Positions 4,358 through 9,338 of a stretch of DNA of 12,470 bases are shown here, piece by piece (position 1 is the stretch's first letter; the number at the start of each line of letters is the position of its first letter). The stretch is from a virus. Lineage: Duplodnaviria > Heunggongvirae > Uroviricota > Caudoviricetes. Under the pieces are notes generated by a model. That model searched no databases, was not told where the DNA came from, and saw only the letters and a list, made by a program, of their open reading frames with translations. The DNA lies in IMG/VR virus record IMGVR_UViG_2671180556_000003, one strand, 5' to 3'. The translations under genes and the position numbers were made by a program.

Positions 4358-5007
4358 GCCGCCATCTCCCTGACCAGTTTTTCCGCCTGCTGGCGAACCT
4401 GCGCCAGAAACGCCTCACCACATGCCTCAAGTTCATCGCGCCCGATGTAGCTGATTGCCGCTCCCTTCCAGGTCTTGTCGAAAACAGCAATAGCACCAGC
4501 GAAGAAAGCACCTGTTGGCACCTGCTTTTCGTCTTTCGGGATAAACCAGGCTGGCAGTTCAAAACCAATACGCCCGCGAATAAAAGCAATATGATCTGCA
4601 TCTTCCGGCCACCACACTTCGCTGGTGGCCGCTTTGATCAGGAAAACATAGCGCCCGCCCTTATCACGCATGGCACTGGCATGTTTCATGATGTAACGCA
4701 TGCCGGTGATGTATTGCCCCTCATGCTGACTGGCGCGGCTGTATGGGGGATTACCAAAGGCAGCACCTTTAAGCTCCGCAAGACGTTCTGACCAGTCATG
4801 CGCCAGCGCGTTGTCTTCCGCCGTGTAATACGCGGCACATTTGGCGTTATCACCGTCAGTGAACAGATCCAGAACAAACGGACCAAACAAGGTGTTAATT
4901 CCCCAGAAAATGTTGTCCGGCGTGCGCCACTGATCGCCCACTTCCTTCAGTTCATGGGCTGGTTTGTTCCGCAGTTCTACCAGCGCCTGGCAATATTTAT
5001 TACTCAT
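4354..5007 (-). CDS. Phage-type DNA N6-adenine methyltransferase (orphan, Dam family)
   Basis: ORF 4354..5052 in the track; 5052 is GTG with no SD. ATG at 5007 follows a GGGGG stretch. Motifs WRTPDNIF, DLFTDGDNAKCAAYYT and NPPYS (the N6-adenine MTase catalytic motif IV) are present. No restriction endonuclease partner is visible in the window. Confidence 0.8.
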   Translation of the reverse strand: MSNKYCQALVELRNKPAHELKEVGDQWRTPDNIFWGINTLFGPFVLDLFTDGDNAKCAAYYTAEDNALAHDWSERLAELKGAAFGNPPYSRASQHEGQYITGMRYIMKHASAMRDKGGRYVFLIKAATSEVWWPEDADHIAFIRGRIGFELPAWFIPKDEKQVPTGAFFAGAIAVFDKTWKGAAISYIGRDELEACGEAFLAQVRQQAEKLVREMAA

Positions 5008-5101
5008 TAAGCCCCCACGTAAAAAGCATCCGCAATGTCTCCGGAAGTACACCCCGGATGGGCTTCAATGAATTTCTGAACTTCATTCAAAAGACTCATG
5101 A

Positions 5102-6109
5102 TCACCCCCTGAATCCTTCCGGGATCTGGCTGTAGTCCACGTTGTCGTAACTGGCTTTGAAGTACGGGTCCTCGCGTCTGGCTGCAGATACCGCAGGAAC
5201 TTCCCAGGATTCTTCGAAATGACGATCCGGACCAAAGAACGTCGACGCCTGCTTCACGAACTGGGTACCGGTATTTCCAGAGACACGCACCCAGGCGGCA
5301 TAGCGTTTCACACCGTCGAGCATGGTTTCGGGTGTCACACCTTCCCTGATTCGGGCTTTCCAGGCTTTAAAAGCGGCGGATTTTGAATTACCACCAGCAC
5401 GTTTGGGATATTCCTGCCAGGCCTGTTCAAATTCCGGTGAATATTCCTGTCTGGCAGAACGCGCTGGTGCAGACGCGTCAGCGGATGCGCCAATAGTGTT
5501 TTTAGTCTCCGTTGTAATCTCTGTAGTAATCTCTGTAGTAATCTCTGTAGTAATCTCTGTATTTGTATCAACATTCGGCGTATCCCCTGTTCCGTTATGA
5601 CGTCGGGGGGTGTTCCGTTTTAACGTAATAGCTGTATCGCTGATTGCATTATTGCTGTTACTTTCTGGCGAAACAGAAGAAGGTGTGGTGATGGCCGCAA
5701 TTGCCTGTGGGTTGATCCCGACAAACAAAATATTGCTGCATTTCACCCCATCGAGCATTTCCACCGTGCGTAAATCCAGAGTAATAAACCCTGCATCGCG
5801 CAGACGCTTCAGCGCATCTGCGGTTTCCCTTTTCCCGAAACCAAACTGCTCAGCAAACGCCTGGTAGCTTCTTTGCAGTTTGTCGCCCTGAAAACGCTTG
5901 CGATATCCCAGCAACGCTCCGGTGTGCTCATCCCTGACCTCTGTCGGGCGGTACCAGTAAACGATCTCTGAAAGCAGAGCGATAGCCGTCGCATCCGGAC
6001 GCCCACTGGGTAGTCGAATATATTTCCACCAGGTCGCAGGTGTAACATTGCCGGAAATATTAATTTGACCAATAGCCATAACTTCCGGTGTGGGGGCGTA
6101 ACGGCTCAT
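5102..6109 (-). CDS. Replication initiation protein (O-like replisome organiser) with internal tandem repeats
   Basis: 335 aa. ATG at 6109 with GGAGG at 4 nt. It has a two-domain layout: an N-terminal winged-helix-like domain and a C-terminal domain containing EFEQAWQEYPKRAGGNSKSAAFKAWKARI, which I recall as typical of phage replication initiators. The two are joined by a low-complexity linker encoding (TEIT)x4. Position after the cro/cII-like/Rha genes fits an O-type gene. Confidence 0.65.
   Translation of the reverse strand: MSRYAPTPEVMAIGQINISGNVTPATWWKYIRLPSGRPDATAIALLSEIVYWYRPTEVRDEHTGALLGYRKRFQGDKLQRSYQAFAEQFGFGKRETADALKRLRDAGFITLDLRTVEMLDGVKCSNILFVGINPQAIAAITTPSSVSPESNSNNAISDTAITLKRNTPRRHNGTGDTPNVDTNTEITTEITTEITTEITTETKNTIGASADASAPARSARQEYSPEFEQAWQEYPKRAGGNSKSAAFKAWKARIREGVTPETMLDGVKRYAAWVRVSGNTGTQFVKQASTFFGPDRHFEESWEVPAVSAARREDPYFKASYDNVDYSQIPEGFRG
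5515..5562. repeat. Four perfect tandem copies of a 12-bp unit (GTAATCTCTGTA) inside the replication gene; iteron-like
   Basis: Seen in sequence: units at 5515-5526, 5527-5538, 5539-5550 and 5551-5562 are identical, with degenerate partial copies on both flanks. On the minus strand they encode TEITTEITTEITTEIT in the linker of the 5102..6109 protein. Confidence 0.9.
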
Positions 6110-6405
6110 ACAACCTCCTTCCGCAGCATGAGAATTGTGTAGCCACGCGCAGGTTGTAGTCTGGCTTTTGCATCAATAGTAAGCGTTGCAATTTTTCGGA
6201 TATGAAGATAACCAGCTCTTTCCAGTGCCAGGGTTTCCCTGAATATCGCTTGCTTAGAACAACAGCAGAAATCAGCAAGCACCTGATGATCAATAACTCT
6301 CTCGCCTTCACCGTCTGAAGAACCCGACATCAAAACACGCAACATAATTAGGCGCTGAATCGGGTTATCGAAAGCACATCCGCACACAAACTGAAAACAG
6401 TTCAC
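6106..6405 (-). CDS. Hypothetical small protein, possible wHTH DNA-binding fold
   Basis: 99 aa. GTG start at 6405 preceded by GGGAGG at 6 nt and overlapping the upstream stop (GTGA). Its 3' end overlaps the replication gene start. The segment VIDHQVLADFCCCSKQAIFRETLALERAGYLHIRKI looks HTH-like. Confidence 0.6.
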   Translation of the reverse strand: MNCFQFVCGCAFDNPIQRLIMLRVLMSGSSDGEGERVIDHQVLADFCCCSKQAIFRETLALERAGYLHIRKIATLTIDAKARLQPARGYTILMLRKEVV

Positions 6406-6626
6406 GCCACACCTCCCAGACGCTTAAACATTTTTCCGGAGCAAAAGGCTATAAGCGGCATACTGACGCGGTAATTACGGCCCAGCGGTTCACAAACCAC
6501 CTTCTGACATTCACGGTCAACCAGGCTAACACGTAGAACATGCCCAGCAGGCGTGGTGTACCACTGACCCGGACGAGGACAACGGAAAGTATGATTGGTA
6601 AACCGTTTGAAAATATTCCGGATCAT
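6402..6626 (-). CDS. Hypothetical small protein
   Basis: 74 aa. ATG at 6626 overlaps the Rha ORF stop (ATGA). AAGGGGG SD at about 5 nt. Contains paired Cys residues (RCPRPG...RECQKVVCEP), a possible zinc ribbon. Function unknown. Confidence 0.55.
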   Translation of the reverse strand: MIRNIFKRFTNHTFRCPRPGQWYTTPAGHVLRVSLVDRECQKVVCEPLGRNYRVSMPLIAFCSGKMFKRLGGVA

Positions 6627-7783
6627 TTGCGCCCCCTTACCTCTGAAGGGTTCAGCGACAAATTTATGAGACTGGCCAGCGCCGAAGCATCATTAATATA
6701 GTCATATAAGCTAACAGCCAGCGGAGATTCGGCTTTTGCCAACATAGGATAAAGCTGCTGCAGCCAGACCTGATGAATTGATGAAATGTAGGAACAGAGA
6801 ACGCTGGCGTTATGTGCAACGTCGCTCGGTACAGCGGGCTTTGAAAGCTGTTTCTCCATCTGGTTAAAGGCATTTATGTATGCCTCTTTGAACCGGGCAG
6901 CACGTTTACCCGTGAAACCCATAGCAAGAAACGCAAAACCGTCTCGTGTGATTTGATAGCAAGGGAGCTTGCGTGTACCACCGTTCGGTTGATTTACCGA
7001 AATCGATGTCTCCGCAAAATTGCGGGCACAAAACTCTGGGGAACAATCCAGAGTGCGGATCTTTTTCAGCACATCGTCGTGACGCTTGGAGAAGAAGTTG
7101 GCAACAGCCAAAGAAGTGGTAACGGCCTGGCCGTTGTCAATGGTGATTTCAGGTTGAGTGAGGGCTGGGATCGTAGCCATGATGGCAGCCTCCGTTGACA
7201 GTGAAAAACTTCCACCACCGGAAACGCCAATTTCACTGGTGGTGAACTGGACGGGGTTGGCGTAACCGGCGTCAACGGAGACCGGCGCACCTTTCGGTGC
7301 CCCCGCCCAGCCCACCATAATCTGGATGTGAGCAAATGCGGACGATAAAAAAGACGCTGGCGCGTCATACATCGCCGTTGACAATTTCAGGACGCCAATC
7401 CCGGCACCCGCTTTATAAGGTGCCTGAGCAGTGTAACGTCCCGGAATTGCAGAATCAATATGCTGGTGGTCCTTCACACTCAACAAAATCACGCCTGAAT
7501 TTCCACAAAGGACTAAAGCACTCATGCGGGTAGTCTTTGCGAAGATAGATAACGCGCTGTGTTTCTGGCTCCCAACGAATAACATGGACATAAAGCCCTC
7601 TTCCGTCACGAAACCAGCGGTTAAGTTCCTGCACAACTCGCCCCCCACAGTCAGGTAAAGTTCTCTGTGGTTACTTACAGCCAGGTGATTTGGTAATCTG
7701 CATTCATGCCGTAACAACAGGTGTTCAGCGACGCTGACCACCAGCTGTTGCGACAAACGGTTATTTGCCGTTAAACTATTCAT
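6623..7783 (-). CDS. Rha-family phage regulatory protein (Rha domain in the C-terminal half; alternative internal start at 7180)
   Basis: 386-aa ORF. Residues about 218-300 (TTSLAVANFFSKRHDDVLKKIRTL...KLPCYQITRDGFAFLAMGFTGKRAARFKEAYINAFNQMEKQL) match the Rha domain. ATG at 7783 overlaps the upstream stop (ATGA). An internal ATG at 7180 (MATIPALTQ...) has a GGAGG SD and would give a canonical 185-aa Rha protein. Both other minus frames across 7181-7780 are full of stops, so the extension is either coding in this frame or non-coding. Confidence 0.6.
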   Translation of the reverse strand: MNSLTANNRLSQQLVVSVAEHLLLRHECRLPNHLAVSNHRELYLTVGGELCRNLTAGFVTEEGFMSMLFVGSQKHSALSIFAKTTRMSALVLCGNSGVILLSVKDHQHIDSAIPGRYTAQAPYKAGAGIGVLKLSTAMYDAPASFLSSAFAHIQIMVGWAGAPKGAPVSVDAGYANPVQFTTSEIGVSGGGSFSLSTEAAIMATIPALTQPEITIDNGQAVTTSLAVANFFSKRHDDVLKKIRTLDCSPEFCARNFAETSISVNQPNGGTRKLPCYQITRDGFAFLAMGFTGKRAARFKEAYINAFNQMEKQLSKPAVPSDVAHNASVLCSYISSIHQVWLQQLYPMLAKAESPLAVSLYDYINDASALASLINLSLNPSEVRGRK

Positions 7784-8364
7784 GCGTTAGTTTCTCCACA
7801 ACCAGAAGCAATCGACGCCACGACGCCCGGAGCTGCACACTCGCGGGCGTTACTCTTTTCCGGCGCACAAAAAACACGAAATAACAGTGTTAAATGCTCC
7901 TGCCACTTCGCCATTACTTGGTAGCTGTTCTCTTCGATTTGCTCACGCTCAGCCTGGTCAATAACTCCATCAGCAGTTGCCTTGCGTAAGTACTGGGAAT
8001 GCTTGCCAATCCATTCTATTGACTCCATCAGCCGCTGATTAATGTCACCATTGTCAATGTCATCAATGACCACCAGCGGCACAAACACCCCATTACTACG
8101 ACGGGCTATTGCATCTGTTACATGCCTGGTACCACTGGCATCCTGTAAAACCATGGCCCACTCAAGTGGAAAAATTTGATCCCCACCGCTACGCAGTCTG
8201 TTATGCAATTGATCTTTTGCTGGGGTGATATCATCAGATTTATACAAACCAAGAATTTCTGCTGCTTCCTCATAGCCATGAGGTAAATCAGCAATCGTTC
8301 TTCGTATTGCTGCCACCAGCCATGCTGGTTGTTTATCAACTTTCCATTCAGGTTCTTTACCCAC
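7780..8364 (-). CDS. Putative early regulatory protein in the cII position (possibly YdaT-like)
   Basis: 194 aa. GTG start at 8364 with GAGGA SD at 7 nt, located 27 nt after the cro-like stop. Position immediately downstream of cro is where cII or YdaT-type regulators sit. The family call is tentative and from memory. Confidence 0.55.
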   Translation of the reverse strand: MGKEPEWKVDKQPAWLVAAIRRTIADLPHGYEEAAEILGLYKSDDITPAKDQLHNRLRSGGDQIFPLEWAMVLQDASGTRHVTDAIARRSNGVFVPLVVIDDIDNGDINQRLMESIEWIGKHSQYLRKATADGVIDQAEREQIEENSYQVMAKWQEHLTLLFRVFCAPEKSNARECAAPGVVASIASGCGETNA

Positions 8365-8620: not shown

Positions 8621-8686
8621 AATGTAGGATATCCAACATGCCAATGTCAAGAATCCTACATGGGCATGTGGTAGGATTGCCTACAT
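8621..8686. promoter_or_regulatory. Right operator region: three operator sites overlapping the PR promoter (minus strand) and the cI start
   Basis: Seen in sequence: site 1 ATGTAGGATATCCAACAT (8622-8639), site 2 ATGTCAAGAATCCTACAT (8644-8661), site 3 ATGTGGTAGGATTGCCTACAT (8666-8686). PR on the minus strand has -35 TTGACA (plus 8650..8645) and, after an 18-nt spacer, -10 TACATT (plus 8626..8621). A possible cI promoter on the plus strand is TTAAAT(8602-8607)-N17-TAGGAT(8625-8630). Confidence 0.7.
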
Positions 8687-9338
8687 GATGAACATGAGTG
8701 ATCGTATTCGCCAAAGGCGAAAAGAACTGAACCTGACACAACAAGCACTGGCTGATTTGACTGGTGTGAACCGTGTCACGGTTACTGGATGGGAAAAGGA
8801 CGACTACCAACCAAATGGAGCCAACCTTCAAGCCCTAGCCAACGCACTTAAATGCGATCCTCTGTGGCTTGTTAGCGGAAAAGGCTCGCCTGAACCAAAG
8901 ATAAATCTAAAACCTGAAATATTCGCAGTTAAAAAAGTCCCCCTAATCTCGTGGGTTCAGGCGGGTTCATGGACAATGACGGAGCCTGGTGTCAGGAAAG
9001 AAGATGCTGAAGAGTGGGTTTATACTACCGCCCTTGTATCAGAAATGGCATTTGCACTACGGGTCCGTGGTGATTCAATGACCAATCCCCTCGGCTCACC
9101 ATCGATACCAGAAGGTTCTATCGTTATCGTAGAGCCAGATATTATTGATACAGAGTGTATTAACGGAAAAATCGTTGTTGCCCATATCAATGGTGGGCAA
9201 GAAGCGACACTCAAAAAATTTGTTGAGGACTGGCCGAACAGGTATCTCGTCCCACTAAATCCTAACTATAAAACTATTGAATGCGGTGAGAACTGCAGAA
9301 TAGTTGGTCTTGTCAAACAAGTAATAATGGATTTTTGA
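8685..9338 (+). CDS. cI: CI-type prophage repressor (N-terminal XRE HTH, C-terminal S24 LexA-like autopeptidase)
   Basis: 217 aa. N-terminal HTH LTQQALADLTGVNRVTVTGWE, then a C-terminal S24 domain with the catalytic Ser in RVRGDSM and a Lys in ATLKKF. Three in-frame ATGs at 8685, 8688 and 8694 make the exact start uncertain, and the first lies inside operator site 3. Confidence 0.9.
   Translation: MMNMSDRIRQRRKELNLTQQALADLTGVNRVTVTGWEKDDYQPNGANLQALANALKCDPLWLVSGKGSPEPKINLKPEIFAVKKVPLISWVQAGSWTMTEPGVRKEDAEEWVYTTALVSEMAFALRVRGDSMTNPLGSPSIPEGSIVIVEPDIIDTECINGKIVVAHINGGQEATLKKFVEDWPNRYLVPLNPNYKTIECGENCRIVGLVKQVIMDF

Follow-up and report, generated by a model that had tools for sequence, protein, structure and literature searches.

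A polymorphic 12-base array inside a prophage replication initiator gene, conserved as nucleic acid across phyla, is a candidate unwinding or loading element of an in-gene origin

What is the role of four perfect, head-to-tail copies of a 12-base sequence in the middle of a gene for a replication initiator? The question is raised by a viral sequence of 12,470 nucleotides (Caudoviricetes; IMG/VR record IMGVR_UViG_2671180556_000003), the whole of which is referred to here as the window, and which represents the early region of a lambdoid Escherichia coli prophage in reverse orientation. The gene in question (5102-6109, minus strand) was identified as an open reading frame encoding a replication initiator of 335 residues. 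The original prediction had placed the repeats in the linker between the two domains of this protein and offered two explanations: iterons of a lambda-type origin bound by the N-terminal domain of the initiator, or a coding minisatellite. The analyses described below favour a third. Judged from sequence comparison, the 12-mers are very probably part of an origin, and we hold it to be probable, if only just, that they are the amplified form, variable in copy number, of a conserved element, other than the iterons, in a theta-type origin located inside the initiator gene, namely a repeat-type unwinding or loading element.

The four perfect 12-mers, which read GTAATCTCTGTA on the plus strand, occupy 5514-5525, 5526-5537, 5538-5549 and 5550-5561 by exact matching. 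The prediction of four perfect repeats was therefore right, while the interval given for them, 5515-5562, lay one base too far to the right. Without a mismatch the period holds for exactly 48 nucleotides, up to T5513 on one side and T5562 on the other, which both break it, and Tandem Repeats Finder reports the repeat as the sole tandem repeat in the window (5506-5561, period 12, 4.7 copies, score 98). Searching the window for GTAATCTCTGTA with up to two mismatches returned six matches against 0.72 expected, a number that was reached in none of 200 shuffles. On the gene strand and in codon register, the array consists of three units of ACAGAGATTACT followed by ACAGAGATTACA (5560-5513, minus strand), with the codons ACA-GAG-ATT-ACT, and is translated as four TEIT units followed by TETK (residues 184-203 of the initiator). 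The TETK is encoded by a degenerate fifth unit, ACGGAGACTAAA (5501-5512, minus strand), 3' of the array on the gene strand. It is followed by the post-array segment AACACTATTGGC (NTIG; 5489-5500, minus strand), which marks the start of a shared C-terminal module and is kept after the array in Salmonella, Pectobacterium, Stx2a-type and P0106-type genes. The array is without dyad symmetry, in that TACAGAGATTAC is not self-complementary and a repeat search found no inverted repeat inside it.

The position of the array within the protein agrees with that originally proposed. Among protein families, the initiator matches phrog_270 (E 3e-77), annotated as 'replication initiation protein'. At E 0.01 the whole 335-residue protein had no match in Pfam, RepA_N (PF06970) included; its N-terminal domain had no significant match either, to the lambda O family or any other, and gave only a sub-threshold one to HTH_36 (E 0.018). 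In the AlphaFold2 model, residues 1-143 and 221-305 are folded. The former (5681-6109, minus strand) make up a winged-helix N-terminal domain, which is presumed to be the origin-binding domain, and the latter (5195-5449, minus strand) a C-terminal domain with a predicted local distance difference test (pLDDT) score of 81-93 and a match to phrog_1701 ('DnaD-like helicase loader', E 1.9e-37). The residues between them, 144-220 (5450-5680, minus strand), have pLDDT values below 50. This linker-coding segment, which we take to be the in-gene origin region, holds the array and a group of iteron-like repeats, and the array thus sits where lambda-type origins sit, in the linker-coding centre of the initiator gene, the annotated iterons of lambda being in the middle of gene O. 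A winged-helix N-terminal domain, a disordered linker and an exchangeable C-terminal domain together form the layout of DnaD-NTD-like (N-terminal domain) and RepA_N-like initiators. In line with exchangeability, DNA identity of 84-94% to the initiator genes of phages cdtI, SfV and mEp460 and of Stx phages is found in the C-terminal half only, with the match to cdtI stopping at position 5496, and on these alignments the C-terminal domain is a mosaic module common to many lambdoid phage initiators.

As the original prediction anticipated, copy number differs between strains. The locus is present in 221 complete E. coli genomes. Alleles read from sequence carry 4 units in the window and in strain G1/2, 3 in the extraintestinal pathogenic strain ExPEC XM, 2 in four strains, 5 in SCPM-O-B-12142 and 11 in STEC2018-553, while match spans across the 221 genomes indicate 4 units in 3 genomes, 5 in 2, 11 in 1, 3 in about 37 and 2 in about 178; 1-unit variants are seen among database proteins. 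In all sequenced E. coli alleles the array is made up of perfect copies followed by the same degenerate unit, ACGGAGACTAAA, which is unchanged regardless of unit number, and the N-terminal half of the gene is 99.8-100% identical between the 2-, 3-, 4-, 5- and 11-unit alleles. The array, to judge by these alleles, behaves as a slippage-driven variable number tandem repeat (VNTR): identical copies, such as those in E. coli, allow replication slippage to alter the number of units (1-11) and thereby to lengthen linker and element together. An effect of copy number on linker length, in TEIT units, is accordingly borne out, whereas the proposed effect on the number of initiator binding sites is not, since the candidate iterons lie elsewhere. 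For E. coli genomics, the array provides a hypervariable marker of 1-11 units inside a prophage replication gene.

Several individual alleles deserve mention. The 11-unit allele of STEC2018-553 (L230, 623-1714) encodes eleven TEIT units in 132 nucleotides of perfect repeat, and because the prophage neighbours of this gene carry the same protein accessions as those in G1/2, with its 4 units, the expansion is very recent. The 2-unit allele of STEC2018-607 (L004, 923-1906) is an intact open reading frame of 327 codons, of which RefSeq annotates the 3' part only, as a partial pseudogene 'missing N-terminus'; this call looks like an annotation artefact, and the array locus can in this way break gene calling. 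A second in-frame length polymorphism of the linker is located at about 5465-5470, where six bases, GCACCA on the gene strand (AP in ASADASAPARSAR), are missing from many E. coli alleles (L006, L007), which explains the match spans of -30 nucleotides.

Perfect in-frame units that are polymorphic between strains are also what a plain coding minisatellite would present, in which slippage alters the length of a disordered linker only and the DNA has no function of its own. The unit length is a multiple of 3, between 1 and 11 perfect copies occur in near-identical genes, the repeats fall within a region of pLDDT below 50, and the TEIT frame is used in 78 of the 80 viral loci described below; moreover, pSK41 Rep functions in trans without its central linker (PMC5703833). 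This explanation nevertheless becomes unlikely once the unit is followed beyond E. coli. Among 80 loci kept from a collection assembled by N-terminal protein similarity, with one genome per species, 46 have ACAGAGATTACT in two or more copies when no more than two mismatches are allowed, nearly all of them 400-700 nucleotides into the gene. Their hosts include Gammaproteobacteria (Serratia, Yersinia, Rosenbergiella, Arsenophonus, Xenorhabdus, Providencia and Acinetobacter) and many Bacillota (Brevibacillus, Lysinibacillus, B. thuringiensis, Syntrophomonas and Lachnospiraceae) and, beyond these, a Rickettsiaceae metagenome-assembled genome (MAG), an Atribacterota MAG and a cyanobacterium. Horizontal transfer was considered as the source of this cross-phylum identity and rejected, the flanking coding sequence being just 35-60% identical in protein.

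The codons of the units are fixed to a degree that the rest of the gene is not. In 22 loci chosen by protein similarity, with units defined at the protein level only, the first threonine is encoded by ACA in 53 of 53 cases (37% elsewhere in the same genes), glutamate by GAG in 42 of 44 (39% elsewhere) and isoleucine by ATT in 26 of 28 (40% elsewhere), with Fisher p values of 1e-8 to 1e-22 for these three comparisons, in which units within one locus are not independent; lysine, where it occurs in units, is encoded by AAG in 8 of 8. The consensus over 43 distinct arrays is ACAGAGAWTACW, in which 1.4-1.8 bits are found at the wobble positions (3, 6 and 9) and 0.65 at the non-synonymous position 8, positions 8 and 12 being the least conserved of the unit. 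In addition, units displaced by one base, and hence read as IQRIH, YRDY, DRDY, KRDF or QRI, retain the DNA motif in several lineages, and a Flavobacterium phage carries a variant array, CCAGATATAAAC. Fixed codons, wobble conservation and off-frame units together show that it is the nucleic acid, and not the peptide, that is constrained. The synonymous positions are thus neither free nor is the unit lineage-specific, as would be expected of a coding VNTR; rather, synonymous sites are essentially invariant across phyla while the most variable position is non-synonymous, off-frame units keep the motif, and the place of the array directly after the iterons is fixed in every family. On these grounds the second of the two explanations first offered, the coding minisatellite, falls away.

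Frozen synonymous sites would fit RNA as well as DNA, and the motif might accordingly act in the mRNA as a translation signal, for example as a pause once the N-terminal domain has emerged, which would favour cis action of the initiator on its own origin, or as a site of autoregulation. The coding strand carries the motif in every case, with very few instances out of frame, and the motif starts 41 codons past the folded N-terminal domain; some 41 codons correspond roughly to the length of the ribosome exit tunnel. However, no slippery or structured RNA element is apparent, the array is predicted to be unstructured (with DNA parameters, no hairpin or other single-stranded DNA structure is predicted in it on either strand) and no Rfam family matches at the repeats. 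Codon-specific pausing, furthermore, would not be expected to persist across hosts with different tRNA pools, and the off-frame units speak against any codon-based effect, so that a signal of this kind seems very improbable.

If the constraint is on DNA, the question becomes which partner reads it, and here a second collection is informative. Scanning IMG/VR with an exact IUPAC pattern for two adjacent units identified at least 120 contigs, from which 80 loci were kept; in 78 of these the array is in frame 0 at about residues 140-210 of open reading frames of 260-370 residues. The N-terminal parts of the encoded proteins belong to three families that are unrelated by BLAST, represented by 46 loci of the mEp460_4F5/Staphylococcus-phage type, 15 of the window type and 13 of the Stx2a-phage type. 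None of the three has a Pfam model, and hhalign indicates that they are remotely homologous (probabilities 95%, 97% and 69%). Each family has its own semipalindromic repeats of 20-23 bp upstream of the array, of the GGTCAAAATG type, with ACGTTnnAACGT and of the GGGAAA/TTCCC type, respectively, and the same 12-base unit follows all of them. The array also occurs with another C-terminal domain, DUF6017 in P0034, and the neighbouring helicase partners vary from an IstB-like ATPase plus DnaB, through a G39P-like loader plus DnaB or a primase-helicase, to none in the window. Since iterons, C-terminal domains and helicase partners all vary, the sole constant partners of the array are the initiator superfamily and the DNA itself.

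These comparisons bear directly on the proposal that the 12-mers are themselves iterons, each duplex unit being bound by the N-terminal domain and copy number setting the number of sites. As in lambda, they are direct repeats in the linker-coding centre of an initiator gene; the array is co-conserved with a highly conserved N-terminal domain across phyla; and the remote homology of the three array-sharing families makes a common recognition surface possible. Yet the 12-mers are contiguous, with a period of 12, and have no internal dyad, whereas the iterons of lambda, pSK41 and RepA_N replicons, repeats of about 17-22 bp, are semipalindromes placed about two helical turns apart (PMC7145576). 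Nor does the unit co-vary with the DNA-binding domain of the initiator, as each family's own upstream repeats do. We therefore consider it quite improbable that the 12-mers are iterons bound by the N-terminal domain, as had been claimed, all the more so as the window possesses a separate pair of iteron-like repeats.

The two members of this pair are ACGTTAAAACGGAACA (candidate iteron 1; 5611-5626, minus strand, with the core ACGTTAAAACGG at 5615-5626, encoding TLKRNT) and ACGTCATAACGGAACA (candidate iteron 2; 5588-5603, minus strand, with the core ACGTCATAACGG at 5592-5603, encoding RRHNGT), both identified as direct repeats and as exact pattern matches. They are semipalindromes of the form ACGTYAWAACGG, lie 23 nucleotides apart, as do the two occurrences of ACGTYAWAACGGAACA, and are translated in different frames, as is characteristic of repeats under selection at the DNA level. 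A weak third site, ACGCCGAATGTT (5570-5581, minus strand), is found 22 nucleotides beyond candidate iteron 2 and matches at 5 of 10 core positions; by its location it would be a third iteron, occupying the place of the last iteron in L017 and Yersinia. The array begins 31 nucleotides past the second 12-nucleotide core and 9 nucleotides, GATACAAAT, past the weak third site, and in relatives it begins 5-10 nucleotides past the last iteron. A five-unit, 23-bp periodicity of 'TGT...' starts was also considered and dropped, as just two units and the weak third resemble the family iteron.

In homologues with the same N-terminal domain, the palindromic core ACGTTnnAACGT is present in 3-6 copies at a spacing of 22-23 bp and in several frames. 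Its carriers include Yersinia, Serratia, Salmonella, Pectobacterium, Acinetobacter phage IME-AB2 and Geobacillus phage PT9.1, the repeats of the last being four to five copies of GACGTTAGAACGTC, and in every such homologue the 12-mer array lies directly 3' of the ACGTTnnAACGT repeats. Across the phyla compared, the ACGTTnnAACGT core tracks this N-terminal domain family. By their spacing, dyad symmetry and co-conservation with the domain, the neighbouring repeats, and not the 12-mers, thus match the iterons described for lambda, pSK41 and RepA_N replicons (PMC5703833; PMC7145576), and the two ACGTYAWAACGG semipalindromes of the window are likely iterons.

The constancy of the 12-mer might alternatively reflect recombination, the array being a patch of homology at a module boundary whose units are the crossover points, or the products, of exchanges that shuffle 'N-terminal domain plus iterons' modules and C-terminal modules. 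Compared with its E. coli relatives, the window is 99.8-100% identical in DNA upstream of the array and 76-90% identical downstream in some cases, and this break in identity places the array at a mosaic junction. In keeping with this, no fewer than three N-terminal families occur joined to the array, and on its other side no fewer than two C-terminal ones, the DnaD-like type and the DUF6017 of P0034. Selection for evolvability, however, would not be strong enough to hold 10 of 12 positions constant over a range of hosts that includes E. coli, a cyanobacterium and an Atribacterota MAG, and the fixed place of the array beside iterons would be left unexplained. We regard recombination at the array as more likely a consequence of its conservation than the cause, and the homology patch as an improbable account.

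If the array is an element of the origin distinct from the iterons, its physical properties suggest which element it may be. By nearest-neighbour energies the array is the least stable 40-bp duplex within 4500-6700 of the window (dG -43.9 kcal/mol), the corresponding value for a 40-bp AT-rich segment of the lambda ori being -43.0 kcal/mol, and it lies in the top 0.2% of the gene for low stability when 48-bp windows are compared. In each of 47 loci the array is less stable than its surroundings, the z-scores all being positive (median +1.65). Like a DNA unwinding element, then, the array adjoins candidate iterons and has a helical stability below that of its surroundings, and it takes the place that the AT-rich segment has in the lambda ori. 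Neither a DnaA box (TTWTNCACA) nor an IHF consensus is present anywhere in the window, and promoter-like and terminator-like sites are not enriched around the initiator gene.

We infer origin activity, binding and a role in unwinding or loading for an array whose anatomy, polymorphism, nucleic-acid-level conservation, independence of iteron type and low duplex stability are as described above. On the gene strand, the proposed order is the part encoding the N-terminal domain, two (possibly three) ACGTYAWAACGG iterons at 22-23-bp spacing, GATACAAAT, the (ACAGAGATTACT)n array and the C-terminal module. Initiator dimers would bind the iterons through their N-terminal domains, the helix would open at the adjacent array, and the initiator and/or the helicase would engage the single strands there. 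The sequence of the array, beyond its A+T content, would be under selection and contacted sequence-specifically, and the same DNA would be translated in the harmless TEIT frame as disordered linker.

A number of observations weigh against this proposal. DNA unwinding elements typically have at least 75% A+T; the array has 67-70%, as compared with about 78% in the lambda segment. In low-GC hosts the array is of below-average stability but is not extreme or the minimum (median z +1.3), and with instability this modest, melting propensity alone cannot explain conservation at the level of individual letters. The window has only two good iterons, as against 3-6 in relatives, and the iteron pattern was derived from the window's own two copies; two or more matches to it (with up to three mismatches) were found in 21 of 200 shuffles, so that support for the iterons has to come from the comparison with relatives. 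With unit numbers ranging from 1 to 11, either the spacing requirements would seem to be loose or replication has been lost in some of these prophages. The use of frame 0 in 78 of 80 loci implies that the peptide, or avoidance of the QRLL and RDYY frames, matters too, and a constraint acting on RNA would freeze synonymous sites equally well.

It is tempting to extend the proposal beyond the window. Tandem ACAGAGAWTACW might be an origin element that acts sequence-specifically and is universal to a very large superfamily of initiators, those with a winged-helix (DnaD-NTD-like) domain, encoded by mobile elements such as phages and prophages in hosts ranging from Proteobacteria to Bacillota and Cyanobacteria. 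It would serve the initiator or the incoming helicase as a recognition site in single-stranded DNA and be for mobile elements what the DnaA-trio or the 13-mers are for chromosomal origins, concealed in coding sequence as a 'TEIT' linker; at this breadth we consider the idea possible but rather doubtful. Being the same in the presence of different iterons, C-terminal domains and helicase partners, the 12-nucleotide motif is in any case a candidate for a common step of opening or recruitment, and thousands of prophages and phage contigs without annotation could be searched with it, as a simple signature, for their origins.

The genes around the initiator gene are those of a lambdoid early region. 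They comprise a CI-like repressor gene (8685-9338, plus strand), a CII/YmfL-like gene (7780-8364, minus strand), a Rha/Ash gene (6623-7783, minus strand), two small open reading frames, and genes for a Dam methylase, a LexA-like protein, RusA and a KilA-N protein. Two Rfam matches, to C4 antisense RNA (7235-7322, minus strand; 81 bits, E 4e-15) and to the Hfq-binding RNA isrK (7347-7423, minus strand; 62 bits, E 1e-11), fall inside the 5' part of the Rha/Ash open reading frame. They suggest a P1-like c4/antirepressor control cassette, and the annotated start of the Rha/Ash frame may be too far upstream. Overlapping the start codon of the initiator gene is an open reading frame of 99 residues (6106-6405, minus strand), which matches phrog_4617 ('replication initiation protein', E 4e-29) and has no Pfam match. 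Open reading frames of 99-103 residues occupy the equivalent place in the Yersinia, Salmonella and Serratia loci and in the metagenomic contig L014, and the encoded protein could be a conserved initiator partner. The last 30 or so residues of the initiator itself (5105-5194, minus strand) co-vary with the downstream genes: the tail ends in EDPYFKASYDNVDYSQIPEGFRG where no loader or helicase comes next (Dam or yfdN being found instead) and in GGRQRQVDVLAGLGAMSDKFGKSSNKLTF where an IstB-like ATPase and DnaB helicase come next. This C-terminal tail is probably a partner-docking segment.

How does the locus compare with known systems? In-gene origins composed of iterons and an unwinding segment are textbook knowledge for lambda, SPP1 and pSK41, all three of which have been studied by experiment. 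The architecture of an origin inside its initiator gene is thus ordinary, and it is the 12-mer, embedded in coding sequence and conserved across phyla, that is unusual. Searches of the full-text literature for the motif, by sequence string or as 'TEITTEIT', returned unrelated primers only, although an earlier description is possible. How DnaD-like and RepA_N-like initiators open DNA and recruit the helicase is still described as unknown (PMC7145576).

The lambda ori, like the region studied here, lies in the linker-coding middle of its initiator gene, O, where transcription passes first through four iterons and then through the gene's least stable duplex, and in both cases the N-terminal half and the origin move as one module while the C-terminal half is exchangeable. 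The two differ in that the AT-rich segment of lambda has no tandem-repeat structure and a higher A+T content, and in that the 12-mers of the window are not iterons. Two short resemblances were seen in lambda (L018, NC_001416, locus 519-600): ACAAAAGACACTATTACA, after iteron 4, resembles the post-array ACTAAAAACACTATTGGC of the window, and TCAGAGAATTCT in the ori is two mismatches from the unit variant ACAGAGAATACT and one from the Stx2a-type unit TCAGAGAATACT. These may be a vestige of the same element in another initiator family, or chance.

Plasmid pSK41, of the RepA_N type, encodes a DnaD-like winged-helix N-terminal domain and a host-specific C-terminal domain, and has four Rep boxes centrally in rep (PMC5703833). 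In its sequence (L227, 13610-13800), the Rep boxes are followed by short, AT-rich, in-frame ACAAAT and GATACTGATTTTATT repeats (two to three copies of GATACTGATTTTATT). In phage SPP1, oriL lies inside gene 38, which encodes the replisome organiser G38P, and contains direct repeats together with an AT-rich DNA unwinding element (PMC6316719). The SPP1 sequence (L229, about 515-615) likewise shows repeats followed by an AT-rich, repetitive stretch encoding N and D, of the AACAATGATAAC type, and contains no ACAGAGATTACT motif even at three mismatches. The arrangement of SPP1 recurs in Geobacillus phage PT9.1, in which gp41, a relative of the window protein, is encoded next to a DnaB helicase and a loader of the G39P-like kind. 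Iterons followed by a short coding tandem repeat may thus be a general layout.

The 13-mers of E. coli oriC and of RK2 provide a parallel in form. RK2 oriV depends on the sequence of all four of its 13-mers, one strand of which is bound as single-stranded DNA by TrfA, a winged-helix Rep protein (PMC4081077). Like the array, these are head-to-tail units of 12-13 nucleotides placed beside initiator sites, and their sequence matters; unlike it, they are intergenic, richer in A+T and fixed in copy number, whereas the array of the window is translated and varies from 1 to 11 units. In this last respect the array is closer to bacterial coding VNTRs, with which it shares perfect in-frame units and a strain-to-strain polymorphism of their number in near-identical genes. 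Ordinary VNTRs, however, are lineage-specific and subject to synonymous drift, while the unit found in the window recurs nearly letter for letter across phyla.

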